Source of the DNA: Bacilli bacterium | GTDB lineage: Bacteria; Bacillota_I; Bacilli_A; RF39; UBA660 | DNA length: 64,000 bases | Assembly (NCBI GenBank): GCA_016297695.1 | Contig: JAEDGC010000001.1 | Span: forward strand, 23,161-87,160 | Direction: 5' to 3' | In this document: in pieces, positions 13,355 through 20,854 of the stretch | How positions within the stretch are numbered: position 1 is the stretch's first letter | Layout: every line of letters starts with the position of its first letter | Translations under genes and position numbers: made by a program | Notes under the pieces: model-generated | Seen by the model: only the letters and a program-made list of their open reading frames with translations | Database searches by the model: none | Told to the model about the DNA's origin: nothing

Positions 13355-13385
13355 ATAAAAGGGTAATTTTACCCTTTTAAATTAT
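13355..13385 (-). terminator. terminator after the Ro60-like gene
   Basis: Hairpin AAAAGGGTAA/TTACCCTTTT overlaps the stop codon. A T-run follows on the minus strand. Confidence 0.6.
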
Positions 13386-14823
13386 ATTTATTTAGTATAT
13401 TTACAATAGCTGTAAATTGATCGTCGTGAATAATGTTATCAAGCTTAGAAAAGATTGTTGCGGAGGAGCCACCTACATATCTTGTATATGGATTGTCTAA
13501 TTTTCCTAAAAAAGTATTGTGTCGAGCATCCGCATTCCAAAATACTATTTTCATAAAAGGAAGATTAACAGCTTTAAACCTCTTTTCCCACTTAGAAACT
13601 ATATCATCTGCTGGTTTTGTTTCTAAAAAATTATCTATTTCCATATCAGAAATAATTATTAAAGCTTCAGGAACTTGTTTTGTTGCGGCAGCAGCTTCAT
13701 ATACAGCTTCAAGCATTCCATCTAAGTTAGTGTTAAAGCCTACATGACTCATAACTTTCTTATAGTTTTCTTCTATTGTAGCATTAGTGTCAAAAGTATA
13801 TAAAGTTGGAATGTCTGTAAAAGTTAAAAACTTATTTTTATAAGCCCCTTTGTTTCTATTTGCACAATATAAAGTTAAGCCAACTGCTACTTCCATAGGT
13901 CTACCATACATTGAACCACTAACATCCGCACAACATAATATATCTGATGATGAATTGCTAAAATAGTCTGGAAGAGATTTCCACTGTAAATCTATTATAT
14001 TTTTATCTATATTTTCATCAAATTTATAAAAATCAGTTATTGCATGAATAATATCTGCGGGAGTTAGTGTCTTTGTATTGATAGAAGCTTTGTTATTAGA
14101 TACTTCATTAAGATAATATCTATACCTAAGACCGCAATGTTTTGTAAATGTGTGAACATAATTTTTATGAGCAATAGAAGGAACAGTCTGAAAATTAATA
14201 GTATTCCAATCATTTGATGACATTTTAATTTCTGTTATATCTAAATATTTTCTTAATTGTGAAAGAGTTTGTCTATATGCTTTAGAACTTATATTATTTA
14301 CATGACAGAATTTCTTAGCTAATCTTTTTGATTCTGCGGAAGAAGCATTTTCACTTTTTAACCATTTAGCTAATAAGGAAATTGGTTTATTGTTGCTATA
14401 AGCAACTATATCTTTCTTTATCTGATTATATAAATACTCCCACATAGTTTTTTCACAAGGAGTATTTTCAAAAGTATAAAAGTCATCCCATCTTCCGTAT
14501 TCGTGTACAAGATCAAAATTAGCTATACACTTTTCAGGATCTATTGTTGCAAATTCCTTTAAAAGAATACGACCAATGCGTCTTTCCCCAAGTCCGTCTA
14601 AAATATCTCTTGTATAAAAAATAAGTTTGTCAGCAAGGTCTTTATCCTGTTCACGAGCTTCCAAATACATATTGATTATCTCCTGTTCAGAAGCATTTCT
14701 CTTGCCGCCTATTAAAGCAAACATATCTATAATTTTATTACAAAGAGTATTATAAGCAAATGCTCCATTCTCTGTAGTTTTAACACTAAATAATTCAGTT
14801 AAATCTTTTACGCACTGATTCAT
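13369..14823 (-). CDS. Ro60/TROVE-like protein with C-terminal vWA domain (DUF2828-type)
   Basis: 484 aa. N-terminus ...TENGAFAYNT...RD..DGLGERR. vWA MIDAS motif DVSGSM, then GFNTNLDG and IIISDME. The architecture parallels Ro60 (helical-repeat TROVE plus vWA). Family call is from memory. Confidence 0.55.
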   Translation of the reverse strand: MNQCVKDLTELFSVKTTENGAFAYNTLCNKIIDMFALIGGKRNASEQEIINMYLEAREQDKDLADKLIFYTRDILDGLGERRIGRILLKEFATIDPEKCIANFDLVHEYGRWDDFYTFENTPCEKTMWEYLYNQIKKDIVAYSNNKPISLLAKWLKSENASSAESKRLAKKFCHVNNISSKAYRQTLSQLRKYLDITEIKMSSNDWNTINFQTVPSIAHKNYVHTFTKHCGLRYRYYLNEVSNNKASINTKTLTPADIIHAITDFYKFDENIDKNIIDLQWKSLPDYFSNSSSDILCCADVSGSMYGRPMEVAVGLTLYCANRNKGAYKNKFLTFTDIPTLYTFDTNATIEENYKKVMSHVGFNTNLDGMLEAVYEAAAATKQVPEALIIISDMEIDNFLETKPADDIVSKWEKRFKAVNLPFMKIVFWNADARHNTFLGKLDNPYTRYVGGSSATIFSKLDNIIHDDQFTAIVNILNKYNLKG

Positions 14824-14849
14824 ATATTTTCTCCTTTATAATAAAAGAA

Positions 14850-15083
14850 AAAGGGGATGCTTAACTTATTTTAAACATCTCCTATAAGCTCAAGATAGCC
14901 TTAAATAATTCCAATGCTTTTTATTATTTTTGCTGAAGCTATCTTTCTAATAAAACAAGGCAATAATCTTCAATTTCTAATTGCTGAAATTGCCTTTATT
15001 GCGGTTATTAATAACCTTCTTATTATTTAAGAGTATTAGCGTTACCCAGTTTGCACCACGAGGAGGTTACTCTTTTGCAAACC
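14850..15083 (-). ncRNA. about 230-nt structured non-coding RNA between tRNA-Gln and the Ro60-like gene
   Basis: Four successive hairpins on the minus strand: AAGAGTA/TACTCTT, GGTTATT/AATAACC, AAGGCAAT/ATTGCCTT and AAGATAGC/GCTATCTT. Ends in AGGAGATG...CATCCCCT plus TTTTTCTTTT. The first hairpin shares the CCTCCTCGTGGTG core with 20000-20045. Confidence 0.4.
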
Positions 15084-15155
15084 CTGGAATGGCTGGATTT
15101 GAACCAGCGGATGACGGAGTCAAAATCCGTTGCCTTCCCTCTTGGCTACATTCCA
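15084..15155 (-). tRNA. tRNA-Gln (UUG)
   Basis: Minus strand TGGAATG-TA-GCCA..GGC-A-ACGGA-TTTTGAC-TCCGT-..-GCTGG-TTCAAAT-CCAGC-CATTCCA-G. U1-A72 and G73 as in bacterial tRNA-Gln. CCA is not encoded. Confidence 0.75.
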
Positions 15156-15356
15156 ATATCAGAGAATAAAAGAATAACCTTTTATTCTCAACTCTATTAA
15201 CCAAAAACTATAATAGTTAAAAAATGAAGTAAATAATATTGTTGCTAATACTATTCCTTTTTATTTTTCACCTATCAATACAAAACATTGGATTTTATGT
15301 TGTTTAATCATGGACTTCAAGAATTTAACTTTTTAGAGTAAAAGAGGTATCCTTGA

Positions 15357-15432
15357 TGGTGTGGGATAGGGGAGTCGAACCCCCCGTCCTCTGATTGGAA
15401 GCCAGATATACTAACCATTATACGAATCCCAC
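15357..15432 (-). tRNA. tRNA-Gly (UCC)
   Basis: GTGGGAT...TCTGG-CTTCCAA-TCAGA...GGGGG-TTCGACT-CCCCT-ATCCCAC-A-CCA. Confidence 0.8.
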
Positions 15433-15440
15433 AAAACAAT

Positions 15441-15511
15441 ACTGGAGTATAAATTCAAATTATGTAATGTTTGCTTACGAGGCAAGTTGTGTATTTTTGA
15501 AACACTCCAGT
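15441..15511 (-). other. degenerate AT-rich tRNA-like element
   Basis: Perfect 7-bp terminal helix ACTGGAG/CTCCAGT, hairpin TTGC-CTCGTAA-GCAA, T-like ATAA-TTTGAAT-TTAT. No proper D-arm and no CCA. Confidence 0.25.
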
Positions 15512-19616: not shown

Positions 19617-19650
19617 ATATTATAAAAGCTAAGATTATTATACTTAGCTT

Positions 19651-19728
19651 TGGTGACGGAAACAGGATTTGAACTTGTAAAAACCTGCTCACTAAGACAG
19701 GCGTGTATGCCAATTCCACCATTCCGCC
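19651..19728 (-). tRNA. tRNA with an 8-nt anticodon loop (CUUAGUGA; UAG-type)
   Basis: GGCGGAA-TG-GTG..CAC-G-CCTGT-CTTAGTGA-GCAGG-TTTTT-ACAAG-TTCAAAT-CCTGT-TTCCGTC-A-CCA. One extra U relative to a canonical CUUAGGA loop. Class-I variable loop. Confidence 0.5.
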
Positions 19729-19735
19729 ATATATT

Positions 19736-19810
19736 ATTTGAGTTTTAACCTGTTAAACTATCAACCACCTCCATGAGGCAGTTGAGTGAGATTCGAACTC
19801 ACATTCAAAT
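19736..19810 (-). ncRNA. circularly permuted tRNA mimic (closed acceptor, open anticodon stem)
   Basis: ATTTG-AAT-GTGAG-TTCGAAT-CTCAC-TCAACTG-[CCTC-ATG-GAGG cap]-TGGTTGA-TA-GTTT-AACAGGTTA-AAAC-T-CAAAT. All tRNA helices are present, in the order 3' half, cap, 5' half. Confidence 0.55.
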
Positions 19811-20047
19811 AATATTTTTTTCGTATGGCAATGTATTAAACCTCTGCAGTGTACTTCTACAGCGTGCAACTCATACACCAACCCCATTTTCGGCTATATC
19901 CATACTTGTCCAGACAAACAACTTATAAGGAGTTGCCAACCTTCAACTTTCGTATGAGCACGGGTGAGTATCCGGACTATCACCTTTATTTTGTGCTATT
20001 AGTTATAATCCAGACTACACCACGAGGAGGTTGCACTATCGTAGTCC
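19811..20047 (-). ncRNA. about 240-nt structured RNA 5' of the permuted tRNA mimic
   Basis: R-like TCAGAGGACTACGA and S-like AAAGGTGATAGTCCGG (GGACTA/TAGTCC can pair). Long-range helix CGTGCTCATAC/GTATGAG..GCACG. GAAA loops. A CCTTATAAG...TATGG receptor-like motif. Confidence 0.4.
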
Positions 20048-20784
20048 TCTGAGTGAAGAGAATCGAACTCTTGTTTCCGGATCCAGTAAAAAATACTCTT
20101 ATAAAACAGGGAACTCCTTATATTTCCAATAATAATTATAAGCCATTTTATTTTTTGCTATGCTCTCCTTAATATATCTTATTTGTCTATCGTCAAACTT
20201 TTGTTTTAACTCTTCTGTTGTCCATAATTTTTCTTCCTCTAAATCAGAATAAGAAATAAATCTGTTATCAGAGTACTTTTTTATAGGAGTTTGAGTTATT
20301 ATTGATTGAATCACATTATCTATTAAATAATCTGAAGCGATAGACATTGTAGATTGTATTCCTTTTTTAGGTGATTTAATCCGTAAATACTTTTCAGTTG
20401 AAACTTCACCAATAGGAATTAAAAATCCGTATTCTTTCCAAGAAGTATAAAAATAATCAACTTCTTTTTCTGAATAAGTATATTTTGTTGTTTTTTGAGT
20501 ATTAGTTGTACTTCTCGTAGCAGACATTTTTAATACACCTTCATCTTCTGAATAAGAAGATGCTTTACACTGTATTTTATATAATTTATCATTAATATCA
20601 ACGATTAAATCATATCGACAAGAACCGCTAAATGGAATACTACAATAATACCCTCTTTTTTGAAAATCTAAGATACATTGGAGTTCATTTACATCGCCAC
20701 GAATTAAAGTGCTATCCATAGCAAACTGTTTTATATTAAAGTTTTTCTACCAAATCCGGGGGCTTACCTCTAACCGACACCCAG
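20048..20784 (-). tRNA. tRNA-Pro (UGG) interrupted in the anticodon loop by a 666-nt ORF-bearing insert
   Basis: 5' half CTGGGTG-TC-GGTT-AGAGGTA-AGCC-C-CCGGA-TTTGG. 3' half GA-TCCGG-AAAC-AAGAG-TTCGATT-CTCTT-CACTCAG-A. C1-G72/A73 as in bacterial tRNA-Pro. No CCA. Confidence 0.65.
20099..20719 (-). CDS. PD-(D/E)XK homing endonuclease (I-Ssp6803I-like, from memory)
   Basis: 206 aa. GDVNELQ...RYDLIVD...YKIQCK gives the E/D...QxK catalytic pattern of the intron-encoded PD-(D/E)XK family. Fills almost the whole insert in tRNA-Pro. Confidence 0.55.
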   Translation of the reverse strand: MDSTLIRGDVNELQCILDFQKRGYYCSIPFSGSCRYDLIVDINDKLYKIQCKASSYSEDEGVLKMSATRSTTNTQKTTKYTYSEKEVDYFYTSWKEYGFLIPIGEVSTEKYLRIKSPKKGIQSTMSIASDYLIDNVIQSIITQTPIKKYSDNRFISYSDLEEEKLWTTEELKQKFDDRQIRYIKESIAKNKMAYNYYWKYKEFPVL

Positions 20785-20818
20785 TTATTACATAAGGCTG
20801 TTTTTTTGTTTAACCTTA

Positions 20819-20854
20819 TGTATATATTATAACAAAAATTTTTTAAAATTTCAA
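20819..20854 (-). promoter_or_regulatory. class-2 promoter, copy 5
   Basis: TTGAAATTTTAAAAAATTTTTGTTATAATATATACA upstream of the split tRNA-Pro. Confidence 0.6.

Follow-up and report, generated by a model that had tools for sequence, protein, structure and literature searches.

The 64,000-nucleotide (nt) stretch analysed here, hereafter the window (positions 23,161 to 87,160 of contig JAEDGC010000001.1, assembly GCA_016297695.1), carries a phage transfer RNA (tRNA) island at 13369-20854, with every feature on the minus strand. Four of its tRNA genes are interrupted in the anticodon loop, and three of the interruptions, introns A, B and C, are themselves tRNA-shaped. These inserts are exact mobile insertions whose removal gives back canonical tRNAs, and their mimicry is under selection. 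We put a probability of roughly 0.55 on the reading, built from the sequence, that A, B and C are homing-spread tRNA-mimic introns that would be cut out by ribonuclease P (RNase P) and an RNase Z-type enzyme and resealed by a phage ligase of the Rnl5 family. They belong to a widespread, essentially undescribed class that lies outside all described kinds of intron. The island as a whole is best read as an ordinary phage tRNA array with conserved RNA-handling genes that was colonised by selfish elements, and not as one integrated machine.

The interrupted genes are tRNA-Pro(UGG) (intron D), tRNA-Leu(UAA) (intron A), tRNA-Lys(UUU) (intron B) and tRNA-Glu(UUC) (intron C), all with U34 (Table 1). 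A previous, sequence-only reading of the same DNA had described four anticodon-loop interruptions in U34 tRNAs, and all four are confirmed by intron-less alleles in two close lineages. The first, L079, is a 122.7-kb ENA contig that was reached via a homologue of the island's Ro60-like protein and whose island flanks are 91-97% identical; the second is L206/L207. As both carry uninterrupted alleles of Pro-UGG, Leu-UAA, Lys-UUU and Glu-UUC, the insert boundaries are exact to the nucleotide. The alignments break at 20750/20084 (Pro), 19583/19532 (Leu), 17279/17203 (Lys) and 16521/15658 (Glu). Inserts A, B and C span exactly the first G of a 7-bp acceptor-like stem to the last A of ACCA. A and B are preceded by CUU (position 34/35) and C by CCUU (position 35/36); the earlier description of three tRNA-shaped inserts with CCA that begin right after CUU thus stands as regards shape and ACCA, and as regards CUU for A and B, but not for C. 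The predicted spliced junctions, with a slash at the join, read ACGCCCUUUUAAGGCGU and ...AACGCCCUU/UUAAGGCGU... for Lys, ...AAUGGACUU/AAAAUCCAU... for Leu, ...CAGCCCUU/CACGCUAA... for Glu and ...CGGAUUUGGGAUCCGG... for Pro.

The three mimics differ in completeness. Intron A is a minihelix with the layout GCGAAAT...ATTGG-TTCAACC-CCAAT-ATTTCGC-ACCA. Intron B is a full cloverleaf with a non-canonical 6-nt 'anticodon' loop, and in the minimum free energy fold of pre-tRNA-Lys, one cloverleaf sits inside another. ARAGORN and Rfam both call insert B a tRNA, namely tRNA-Leu(UAA); we rejected it as a genuine tRNA on account of the 6-nt anticodon loop and of homologues in which the arm is wholly missing. 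Intron C carries its T arm, acceptor 3' strand and ACCA at its extreme end, and has homologues in L006, L008, L012, L014, L017, L018 and L060. Neither A nor B contains an open reading frame (ORF).

In its intron mode, ARAGORN reports 30 'introns' among 591 tRNAs, about 20 of them closed by a 7-bp helix. A comparative survey for inserts with acceptor, T-arm and CCA ends, which the sequence-only reading had proposed, defined 17 tRNA-shaped inserts in 12 phages, eight with an HNH gene in the variable region and nine ORF-less (44-77 nt). The invaded tRNAs are Glu, Asp, Asn, Gln, Lys, Leu-UAA and Ile-UAU, at positions 34/35, 35/36 or 36/37. Invasion of Asp-GUC and Asn-GUU in other phages shows that U34 is no general rule; that all four interrupted genes of the window have it follows from AT-rich codon usage (the phage genome has a G+C content of 30%). 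Removal of the insert leaves a canonical 7-nt anticodon loop (CUUUCAC, CUGUCAC, CUGUUAA, CUUUUAA and others). When spliced in silico, 20 of 20 interrupted tRNAs, from 13 phages and 8 anticodon classes and including three D-type cases, are called normal by ARAGORN.

In all 17 inserts the tRNA top half is preserved: an acceptor stem of 7 bp stacks directly on a T stem of 5 bp that is capped by a 7-nt loop. The insert bodies outside it are highly variable and range from a bare minihelix to a full cloverleaf. With 12 stacked pairs in each insert, 97.1% of the 204 acceptor and T-stem pairs are formed, with several pair types at most stem positions; in a shuffled control in which 3' strands were exchanged between inserts, the figure was 66 ± 3% (maximum 80%). 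G53-C61, C56 and R57 are present in every insert and G+1 in 16 of the 17. The base at position -1 is usually U, also in A, B and C, the exceptions being G in the two Asp introns and C in L014 and L060. The 3' tail varies with the genome. Seven phages that encode CCA hold 11 inserts with an NCCA tail (one GCAA), and in five CCA-less phages the six inserts have a tail of 1-2 nt, after which the 3' exon starts with U. The rule extends to the homologous HNH introns, so that the tail is fitted to its genome rather than simply passed down. No such intron occurs in 975 kb of unrelated viral DNA with 37 tRNAs, a negative control of 120 loci that are all chance matches to the D-arm pattern TAGTTTAAN{3,8}AAACTTT, and the junction pattern CCCTTGNTGRAATAGTTTAAT has no match in IMG/VR.

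Several observations bear on whether the interrupted genes function. The Pro anticodon stem reads CCGGA/TCCGG, CTGGA/TCCAG and TCGGA/TCCGA in the three related alleles, and the three pairs by which the Leu(UAA) acceptor stem differs from that of L079 are all compensated. From these sequences, the exons of the interrupted tRNAs still look alive, that is, they appear to be under selection. The interrupted genes are also the window's sole genes for AAA, GAA and UUA, the 2nd, 3rd and 8th most used codons of the genome. A rival explanation holds that the inserts are never removed: selfish insertions would recently have killed four tRNA genes, and the tRNA shape would either derive from a tRNA origin or serve the element itself, for instance in processing or stabilisation of the endonuclease mRNA. 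The absence of all four inserts from the closest relatives implies recent invasion and fits this idea, as does a C.A mismatch in the window's tRNA-Glu, and the same HNH family sits in clearly disrupted tRNA-Gln remnants of L019 and L056, beside a replacement tRNA-Gln. However, all 20 interrupted tRNAs are structurally intact, their loop measures exactly 7 nt after every insertion, and those of the window are the sole genes for most-used codons. Moreover, the ORF-less inserts of 44-77 nt have no mRNA to serve and yet show perfect top-half geometry, and among homologous introns of a single family the tail follows whether the genome's tRNA genes encode CCA. We therefore consider permanent inactivation unlikely.

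The inserts were compared with known kinds of tRNA intron. The cyanobacterial tRNA-Leu(UAA) group I intron lies at U34/A35, and the Synechocystis tRNA-fMet intron encodes I-Ssp6803I. Group I tRNA introns resemble the inserts in their anticodon-loop position, endonuclease cargo, presence/absence polymorphism and usual U-1; intron A even occupies the classic U34/A35 site, and the ORF of intron D belongs to the I-Ssp6803I family. Unlike group I introns, however, the inserts lack a ribozyme core and shrink to 44-50 nt, the ORF-bearing ones have less than 150 nt of non-coding sequence (about 100+25 nt in C and 31+15 nt in D), and their last base is A or U instead of omega-G. The 3' ends are ...ACCA in A, B and C, and U or G in D, where the boundary is ambiguous. 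Folded as the top half of a tRNA with NCCA, the inserts cannot self-splice by the group I mechanism. A group I intron was thus rejected: the inserts are too small, omega-G is missing, and Intron_gpI gives no match at E<=5 in 13000-21500. A separate case is L051 4903-5246, where a class I tRNA-Leu(UAA) carries at the same U34/A35 site a 268-nt intron that ends in G and has no Rfam group I match; this may be a divergent group I intron.

Archaeal and eukaryotic bulge-helix-bulge (BHB) introns, which are processed by EndA/Sen and RtcB or Trl1, share with our inserts the removal by protein or ribonucleoprotein enzymes (predicted here), a separate ligation step and a helix that extends the anticodon stem. 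In contrast to them, the inserts have no BHB, lie at 34/35 to 36/37 rather than at 37/38, have tRNA end-processing enzymes as their predicted cutters, and would leave 3'-OH and 5'-phosphate ends, not 2',3'-cyclic phosphate and 5'-OH. A BHB-type intron was likewise rejected, since the junctions consist of 3-5 nt on the 5' side, a 7-bp helix, and tail plus loop on the 3' side, and not of the BHB arrangement of a 4-bp helix between two 3-nt bulges across both splice sites. Rfam detected no hammerhead, twister, pistol or hatchet ribozyme at the junctions. The use of a tRNA-shaped module as an RNase P/RNase Z cleavage signal is reminiscent of mitochondrial tRNA punctuation, plant t-elements and the mascRNA of MALAT1. 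There, the flanks are released, whereas here the module is nested in a tRNA and the flanks need rejoining. In full-text literature searches, the only earlier sighting of tRNA-shaped introns was a remark on 'enigmatic' introns in phage tRNA genes of Lak megaphages (bioRxiv 10.1101/356790; PMC6784885), which probably represent the same phenomenon. That report mentions them in passing in ~540-kb Prevotella megaphages and gives no boundary rule, family, endonuclease link or mechanism, whereas the class is defined here across gut phages of ~120-190 kb and a processing model is proposed.

Two of the inserts, C and D, had been said to carry homing endonucleases, and Pfam, PHROG and PDB searches show that both genes are real. 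The HNH ORF of intron C (16420-15683) scores 24.2 bits with Pfam HNH_3, for which the curated cut-off is 24.8 bits, and matches PHROG 10822 at 1.6e-40. Its family comprises 3513 homologues at E<1e-5, nearly all of about 244 amino acids, and the gene lies in or beside a tRNA array in most of 74 loci examined. There, the gene either stands alone next to tRNA-Glu or tRNA-Gln, shares with a replacement tRNA-Gln(UUG) a cassette that sits inside a broken tRNA-Gln (L056 3830-4560, L019 3830-4860), or lies within a tRNA-shaped insert in an anticodon loop. A close parallel is SegB of phage T4 (PMC2330249). Both families are dedicated to tRNA gene regions, and the HNH gene is often free-standing beside tRNA-Glu or tRNA-Gln, but SegB is a GIY-YIG enzyme that is never intron-borne, whereas the HNH gene also resides inside a tRNA-mimic intron. 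Among 185,579 bacterial and archaeal species genomes, the HNH family is essentially absent, occurring on only 4 contigs of metagenome-assembled genomes, so that no host can be deduced from it.

Presence and absence at identical nucleotides in close relatives, together with the endonuclease genes inside C and D, mark these elements as mobile introns. The tRNA-Glu gene of the window is moreover chimeric: an L079-type 5' exon meets an L206-type 3' exon at the intron site, which produces a C28.A42 mismatch. Such flanking-marker exchange is expected from homing. At the DNA level, the HNH or PD-(D/E)XK enzyme would cut an intron-less allele, and repair would copy the intron in. The suggestion that mobile tRNA-shaped elements home into anticodon loops is thus strongly supported, by presence/absence polymorphism, recurrence, endonuclease cargo and the recombinant exon junction. 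L079 and L206 have none of the four introns and neither of the two theta ribozymes described below, and they keep the same tRNAs and the kinase, HPr-like and Ro60-like genes. Introns and ribozymes are therefore strain-specific additions, and the protein genes are the conserved part.

Intron D is a second intron type that the excision mechanism proposed below does not explain; its exons co-vary like those of the others. Its edges lie at 20750/49 and 20085/84, with a 1-nt ambiguity that is caused by a run of G. It is closed by a long A/U-rich terminal helix, has no T arm or CCA, no ribozyme core and too little space for one, and gave no Rfam intron or ribozyme match at E<=5; the predicted fold of its pre-tRNA is a single uninterrupted helix in which the anticodon loop is absorbed. 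Excision by RNase III was considered and rejected, as a 2-nt staggered cut cannot leave a 7-nt loop. The ORF (20719-20099) matches Pfam PDDEXK_5 (2.9e-23), and its sole PDB match is I-Ssp6803I (2OST, 1.7e-6). The same element is present in tRNA-Pro of L075 and L076 and is free-standing in L078, with a 17-bp terminal inverted repeat. Elsewhere in the window, one ORF has a LAGLIDADG_3 domain match (1.2e-7), which suggests a third homing-endonuclease family.

For A to C, the conserved elements (12-bp stack, T loop, U-1, G+1 and RCCA) are determinants of RNase P and RNase Z, which underlies the reading that these two enzymes excise them. The 17 inserts show the geometry of RNase P/RNase Z substrates together with the G+1, U-1 and tail features, with cleavage itself a prediction. 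At the RNA level, host RNase P would cut 5' of the mimic's G+1. An RNase Z-type endonuclease would cut after NCCA where CCA is encoded and after the discriminator (+1) where it is not. Some RNase Z enzymes do cleave at both places, behind the discriminator if the precursor lacks CCA and immediately behind CCA if it contains one (PMC7479834). The product would be a tRNA that is nicked in the anticodon loop, with 3'-OH and 5'-phosphate ends, and the phage's Rnl5-family (DraRnl/NgrRnl-like) ligase would seal the nick. Such ends are the substrates of ATP-dependent Rnl-type ligases such as DraRnl and NgrRnl.

A ligase of this type is indeed encoded by the phage. None was found among the ~70 ORFs of the window, but L081, which matches the window at 100% identity over 10,591 nt and extends beyond its 5' end, carries an Rnl5-family (DraRnl/NgrRnl-like) ligase at 50-1156, on the opposite strand and 1.5-2.6 kb upstream of window position 1. 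The protein contains Pfam RNA_ligase and PHA02142 OB domains, matches NgrRnl (5COT, 2.4e-21) and has the KIDG motif at K178, which places it in the family. Its gene shares a 124,720-bp contig with the HNH, PD-(D/E)XK and Ro60-like genes, and a homologue stands directly upstream of the intron-bearing tRNA-Pro of L076. A second RNA_ligase match occurs among the neighbourhood ORFs. The proposed route of tRNA processing plus ligation thus gains an RNase P-type 5' junction, a CCA-matched tail and an Rnl5 ligase on the contig, although this support is indirect only.

Several points weigh against excision by RNase P and RNase Z followed by Rnl5 ligation. Splicing, cleavage sites and end chemistry are all inferred from sequence. 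The 3' cut is needed after 1, 2 or 4 nt depending on the intron, and the 2-nt tails of L012, L017 and L018 do not fit a cut strictly after N73 and need one nucleotide beyond. Bacillus-type RNase Z is inhibited by CCA, and Rnl5 ligases have been characterised on nicked duplexes, not on anticodon loops. Since D has no tRNA shape and its exons are equally kept, at least one other excision route must exist. The C.A mismatch in tRNA-Glu counts here as well. If healthy genes were invaded recently, that alone could account for the intact exons; as the closest relatives lack the introns, their residence in the window lineage may be short.

Some of these points would suit different splicing enzymes. 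A dedicated endonuclease could leave 2',3'-cyclic phosphate and 5'-OH ends, which the island's kinase would heal and Rnl5 seal, or which host RtcB would join; the tRNA shape would then serve folding or recognition and not RNase P or Z. This idea draws on the Pnkp-type kinase inside the island, on intron D, which lacks a tRNA shape and nevertheless has functional-looking exons in three phages, and on the tails of 1, 2 and 4 nt, which are awkward for a single RNase Z rule. Yet neither a candidate endonuclease nor a BHB-like motif was found, no phosphatase or cyclic phosphodiesterase partner of the kinase was found among the window ORFs, and the kinase is equally present in L079 and L206, which carry none of the four introns. 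In addition, the invariant G53-C61 and C56, the 12-bp stack, G+1, the usual U-1 and the CCA correlation are the exact determinants of RNase P and RNase Z. We regard this alternative as rather unlikely and retain RNase P/Z excision with Rnl5 ligation as the preferred reading for A to C.

The proteins of the island invite a further comparison. A Ro60-like protein had been proposed and is confirmed at the fold level: in its AlphaFold2 (AF2) model (predicted local distance difference test score, pLDDT, 86.3), the top 12 Foldseek matches in the PDB are all Ro60/TROVE proteins, followed by von Willebrand factor A (vWA) domains, and include 1YVR (template modelling (TM) score 0.62, E 2e-8), the phage phiLo Ro60 9L5Y and 2NVO Rsr. 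At the sequence level, the protein has no PDB match, and a search by peptide words recovered no relative in IMG/VR. Its gene stands beside tRNA arrays in L004/5, L008, L027, L079 and L206. The predicted Pnk-like kinase is a 146-residue Pnkp-kinase-like protein without a phosphatase domain (AAA_33 3e-24; PHROG 505 'polynucleotide kinase'). Among solved structures, PSTK and the Clostridium thermocellum Pnkp kinase domain (CthPnkp, 4JST, 6.5e-14) come closest to it. No 3'-phosphatase or 2',3'-cyclic phosphodiesterase domain was found in the kinase or among the ~70 window ORFs. The kinase and HPr-like genes share a 16-nt overlap and stay paired in L008, L079 and L206; given this pairing, the kinase may act on the HPr-like protein rather than on RNA.

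The combination recalls the T4 Pnkp plus Rnl1 module, which repairs anticodon loops, and the bacterial Rsr(Ro60)-YrlA-RtcB operon, with which it shares a kinase-like enzyme, a ligase for 3'-OH/5'-phosphate ends, a Ro60 fold and a tRNA-like RNA with a closed acceptor. It differs in that the kinase lacks a phosphatase, the ligase is Rnl5 and not Rnl1 or RtcB, it lies ~15 kb away, and the genes do not form one operon. In the sequence-only hypothesis of an anticodon-nuclease evasion or repair system, the introns would hide replacement tRNAs until maturation, and kinase, ligase and Ro60 would repair cleaved tRNAs. In its favour, a single genome unites Pnkp-like kinase, Rnl5 ligase, Ro60-like protein and tRNA-like RNA, much as the modules just named do. 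Lys, Glu and Gln tRNAs with U34 are known nuclease targets, and a C33 in tRNA-Glu could be an escape mutation. U33 is near-universal in tRNAs, and tRNA-Glu(UUC) has C33 (loop CCUUCAC) in all three related phages (L079 8858-8933, L206 9186-9261), so that we mention nuclease escape only as a speculative account of it. The hypothesis fares poorly on other counts. The closest relatives keep the kinase, HPr-like and Ro60-like genes without introns or ribozymes, the mature tRNAs would be exposed to cleavage again, and no 3'-phosphatase partner of the kinase was found among the window ORFs. The choice of tRNAs does not fit either, as Asp, Asn, Ile, Pro and Leu tRNAs are invaded too, those of the window read the phage's commonest codons (AAA, GAA, UUA), and the U34 bias follows AT-rich codon usage. 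We thus hold an evasion system to be very unlikely. Independently of the introns, a set for RNA repair or quality control may well be made up of the kinase, the ligase, the Ro60-like protein and the permuted tRNA-like RNA.

Table 1. Features of the tRNA island and the basis of their assignment (window coordinates).
Feature	Position	Strand	Basis
tRNA-Pro(UGG) 5' exon, ends in loop UUUG/	20751-20784	-	ARAGORN intron mode; alignment with L079 5018-5091 and L206 6527-6600
Intron D, 666 nt, PD-(D/E)XK ORF	20085-20750	-	absent from L079, L206; PDDEXK_5; predicted fold
tRNA-Pro(UGG) 3' exon, ends at discriminator A73, no encoded CCA	20048-20084	-	ARAGORN intron mode, splicing, relatives
Theta-type (minimal HDV-like) ribozyme, directly 3' of A73 of tRNA-Pro	19983-20047	-	Rfam HDV-F-prausnitzii
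Structured RNA, family unassigned	19814-19984	-	~98% identical in L079; no Rfam match
Circularly permuted tRNA-like domain	19733-19813	-	L079 alignment
tRNA-Leu, 8-nt anticodon loop CUUAGUGA	19651-19728	-	ARAGORN, Rfam, L079 alignment
tRNA-Leu(UAA, class I body) 5' exon, ends ...CUU	19583-19616	-	ARAGORN intron mode, in-silico splicing, relatives
Intron A, 50 nt, minihelix-type tRNA mimic	19533-19582	-	absent at the exact nucleotide from L079 (5600-5675) and L206
tRNA-Leu(UAA) 3' exon, AAAA... to CCA	19491-19532	-	in-silico splicing, L079 alignment
Free-standing tRNA-like RNA, aberrant anticodon region	19364-19463	-	sequence read; ARAGORN at lowered threshold only
tRNA-Leu(CAA), tRNA-Ile(GAU), tRNA-Ser(GCU)	19005-19263	-	ARAGORN, Rfam
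Conserved non-coding RNA, family unassigned	18612-18980	-	conserved blocks in L008, L006/L010, L009; no Rfam match
Marginal tRNA-Ser(UGA)-like gene	18611-18523	-	ARAGORN -ps90
HPr-like gene	18395-18162	-	Pfam, PHROG
P-loop kinase, Pnkp-kinase/PSTK type	18177-17737	-	Pfam, PHROG, PDB
tRNA-Met	17664-17590	-	ARAGORN, Rfam
Free-standing tRNA-like RNA, after tRNA-Met	17584-17511	-	ARAGORN, Rfam
tRNA-Lys(UUU) 5' exon, ends ...CUU	17279-17311	-	ARAGORN intron mode, in-silico splicing, relatives
Intron B, 75 nt, full cloverleaf tRNA mimic, ACCA tail	17204-17278	-	absent from L079 (7512-7585) and L206 (8866-8939)
tRNA-Lys(UUU) 3' exon, UUAA... to CCA	17163-17203	-	in-silico splicing, relatives
tRNA-Asn, tRNA-Trp, tRNA-Tyr	16722-17095	-	ARAGORN, Rfam
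tRNA-Glu(UUC, C33) 5' exon, ends ...CCUU	16521-16556	-	in-silico splicing, relatives
Intron C, 862 nt, tRNA mimic with HNH ORF in variable region	15659-16520	-	Pfam, PHROG; absent from L079, L206
tRNA-Glu(UUC) 3' exon	15619-15658	-	relatives alignment
tRNA-Gly(UCC)	15432-15357	-	ARAGORN, Rfam
tRNA-Gln(UUG), no encoded CCA	15156-15084	-	ARAGORN, Rfam
Theta-type (minimal HDV-like, P4-less) ribozyme, directly 3' of G73 of tRNA-Gln	15027-15083	-	Rfam
Ro60-fold protein (DUF2828 + DUF7788/vWA)	13369-14823	-	Pfam, PHROG 850, AF2 + Foldseek

The tRNA genes were called with ARAGORN, Rfam and in-silico splicing. Between 20784 and 15084, these methods give 14 confident genes: Pro-UGG, Leu-UAG (8-nt loop), Leu-UAA, Leu-CAA, Ile, Ser-GCU, Met, Lys-UUU, Asn, Trp, Tyr, Glu-UUC, Gly and Gln-UUG. 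With one marginal Ser-UGA-like gene and six tRNA-like non-decoding RNAs in addition, the earlier count of about 16 was fair. The orthologues in L079 and L206 of the tRNA-Leu with the 8-nt loop have a normal Leu-UAG loop, CUUAGAA; in the window, the gene has either been damaged or may act as a four-base, frameshifting decoder. ARAGORN in its -m mode found no tmRNA in the island.

Two ribozyme-like RNAs had also been predicted, and both match the minimal theta type of ribozymes like that of hepatitis delta virus (HDV), with scores below the Rfam gathering threshold. Each aligns over the full length of RF02682 and has P1, P3 and the CCUCCUCGUGGUG core; the one after tRNA-Pro scores 21.5 bits (local E 0.017) and the one after tRNA-Gln 30 bits (local E 1.7e-4), against a gathering score of 44. 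Both start at the nucleotide after the discriminator of a tRNA without encoded CCA, the position that is typical of theta ribozymes. At the same sites, L079 and L206 have 'CCAATT' after A73 of tRNA-Pro, and L206 has an encoded CCA after tRNA-Gln. The theta ribozymes of gut phages (Kienbeck et al. 2024, PMC10879173) share this start after the discriminator of a CCA-less tRNA and a DRB0094/Rnl5-type ligase in the genome; those of the window differ in lying on Pro-UGG and Gln-UUG rather than on suppressor, Met or Leu tRNAs and in scoring below the Rfam threshold. DRB0094-family RNA ligases occur in 54.5% of theta-ribozyme phages, a 140-fold enrichment, without a convincing role (PMC10879173). The window shows no sign of stop-codon recoding.

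The permuted tRNA mimic described earlier is conserved in L079 with many compensatory pairs, in the closing stem and in a 9-bp hairpin. It consists of the closing stem, a T arm, an acceptor-like hairpin closed by a loop and a D arm, a topology like that of YrlA, and is preceded on its 5' side by a structured RNA of ~170 nt; the two together correspond to L079 5095-5341. No Ro-binding helix was identified in the permuted RNA, and no Rfam Y RNA match in the island. Two free-standing tRNA-like RNAs have defective anticodon arms and the D-arm motif TAGTTTAA in common with the introns. The one at 19463-19364 is 94.6% conserved in L008; the one after tRNA-Met lacks 7 nt of its anticodon arm in L079 and is entirely missing in L206. 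Both may be solo copies of mobile tRNA mimics. Together with the permuted RNA (19813-19733) beside the Ro60-like gene, and with the CCA ends on the inserts, they bring up the idea that the outer halves only scaffold the processing of the inner tRNA-like RNAs, which would be what is really made, for example as decoys, primers or Ro60 ligands. The outer halves, however, rebuild specific, co-varying and isoacceptor-correct tRNAs, relatives do without the inserts, and the insert bodies vary strongly outside the top half, which makes this idea highly improbable.

A further conserved non-coding RNA of ~250-370 nt lies upstream of the marginal tRNA-Ser(UGA)-like gene, with counterparts at L008 1142-1384, L006 ~8380-8600 and L009 ~365-600. 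It starts with GGCGGG directly 3' of an extended -10-like box, TGTGAATATA, and contains the invariant blocks CUCGUUAG, GCUGCUCCUAUGGCUGAAGGC, GAAAYGAUAUAU and CUUCGUAG; the window's version has an additional block of ~150 nt. Rfam excluded its assignment as tmRNA, ROOL or GOLLD. ROOL RNA and tmRNA genes do occur in tRNA islands of related phages (L009 6721-7311, L060 6670-7014, L009 1721-2051, L075 4980-5336). A repeated promoter-like element, TTGAAATTTTAAAAAATTTTTGTTATAAT, stands before each transcription unit of the island, on the minus strand at ~20850, 18450, 17730, 16880 and 13330. Many copies occur in L001-L079, and as the element is common to dozens of related gut phage contigs, it marks these as one large phage group with genomes of ~120-190 kb. 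A megablast search of GenBank phages gave no match.

To our knowledge, all tRNA introns known in bacteria and phages are self-splicing, and splicing of tRNA by enzymes counts as a trait of archaea and eukaryotes. We give about even odds to the broader proposition that bacterial viruses carry a fourth mechanistic class of tRNA intron, mobile, free of catalytic RNA and BHB, excised by RNase P and RNase Z and rejoined by Rnl5. A practical consequence concerns annotation. ARAGORN miscalls such genes as Thr, Ala, Gln and selenocysteine (SeC) tRNAs where Lys, Leu, Pro and Ile are the actual identities; because standard tRNA finders mis-assign them, phage tRNA repertoires and code predictions are affected. 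If our reading is true, the strong enrichment of Rnl5/DRB0094 ligases in gut phages would be explained and these enzymes given a concrete job. The inserts would add a new class to the natural substrates of RNase P and RNase Z, and mimicry of these substrates would be a new way to be a harmless intron and escape counter-selection. As an RNA cassette that is compact, excisable and independent of sequence, the insert design could find use in engineering, and a minihelix inserted in a tRNA anticodon loop would bear on models of tRNA origin. For the phage, the supply of tRNAs for its commonest codons would hang on its own ligase as a potential timing switch. A tRNA splicing pathway that depends on protein would be a first for the bacterial world.

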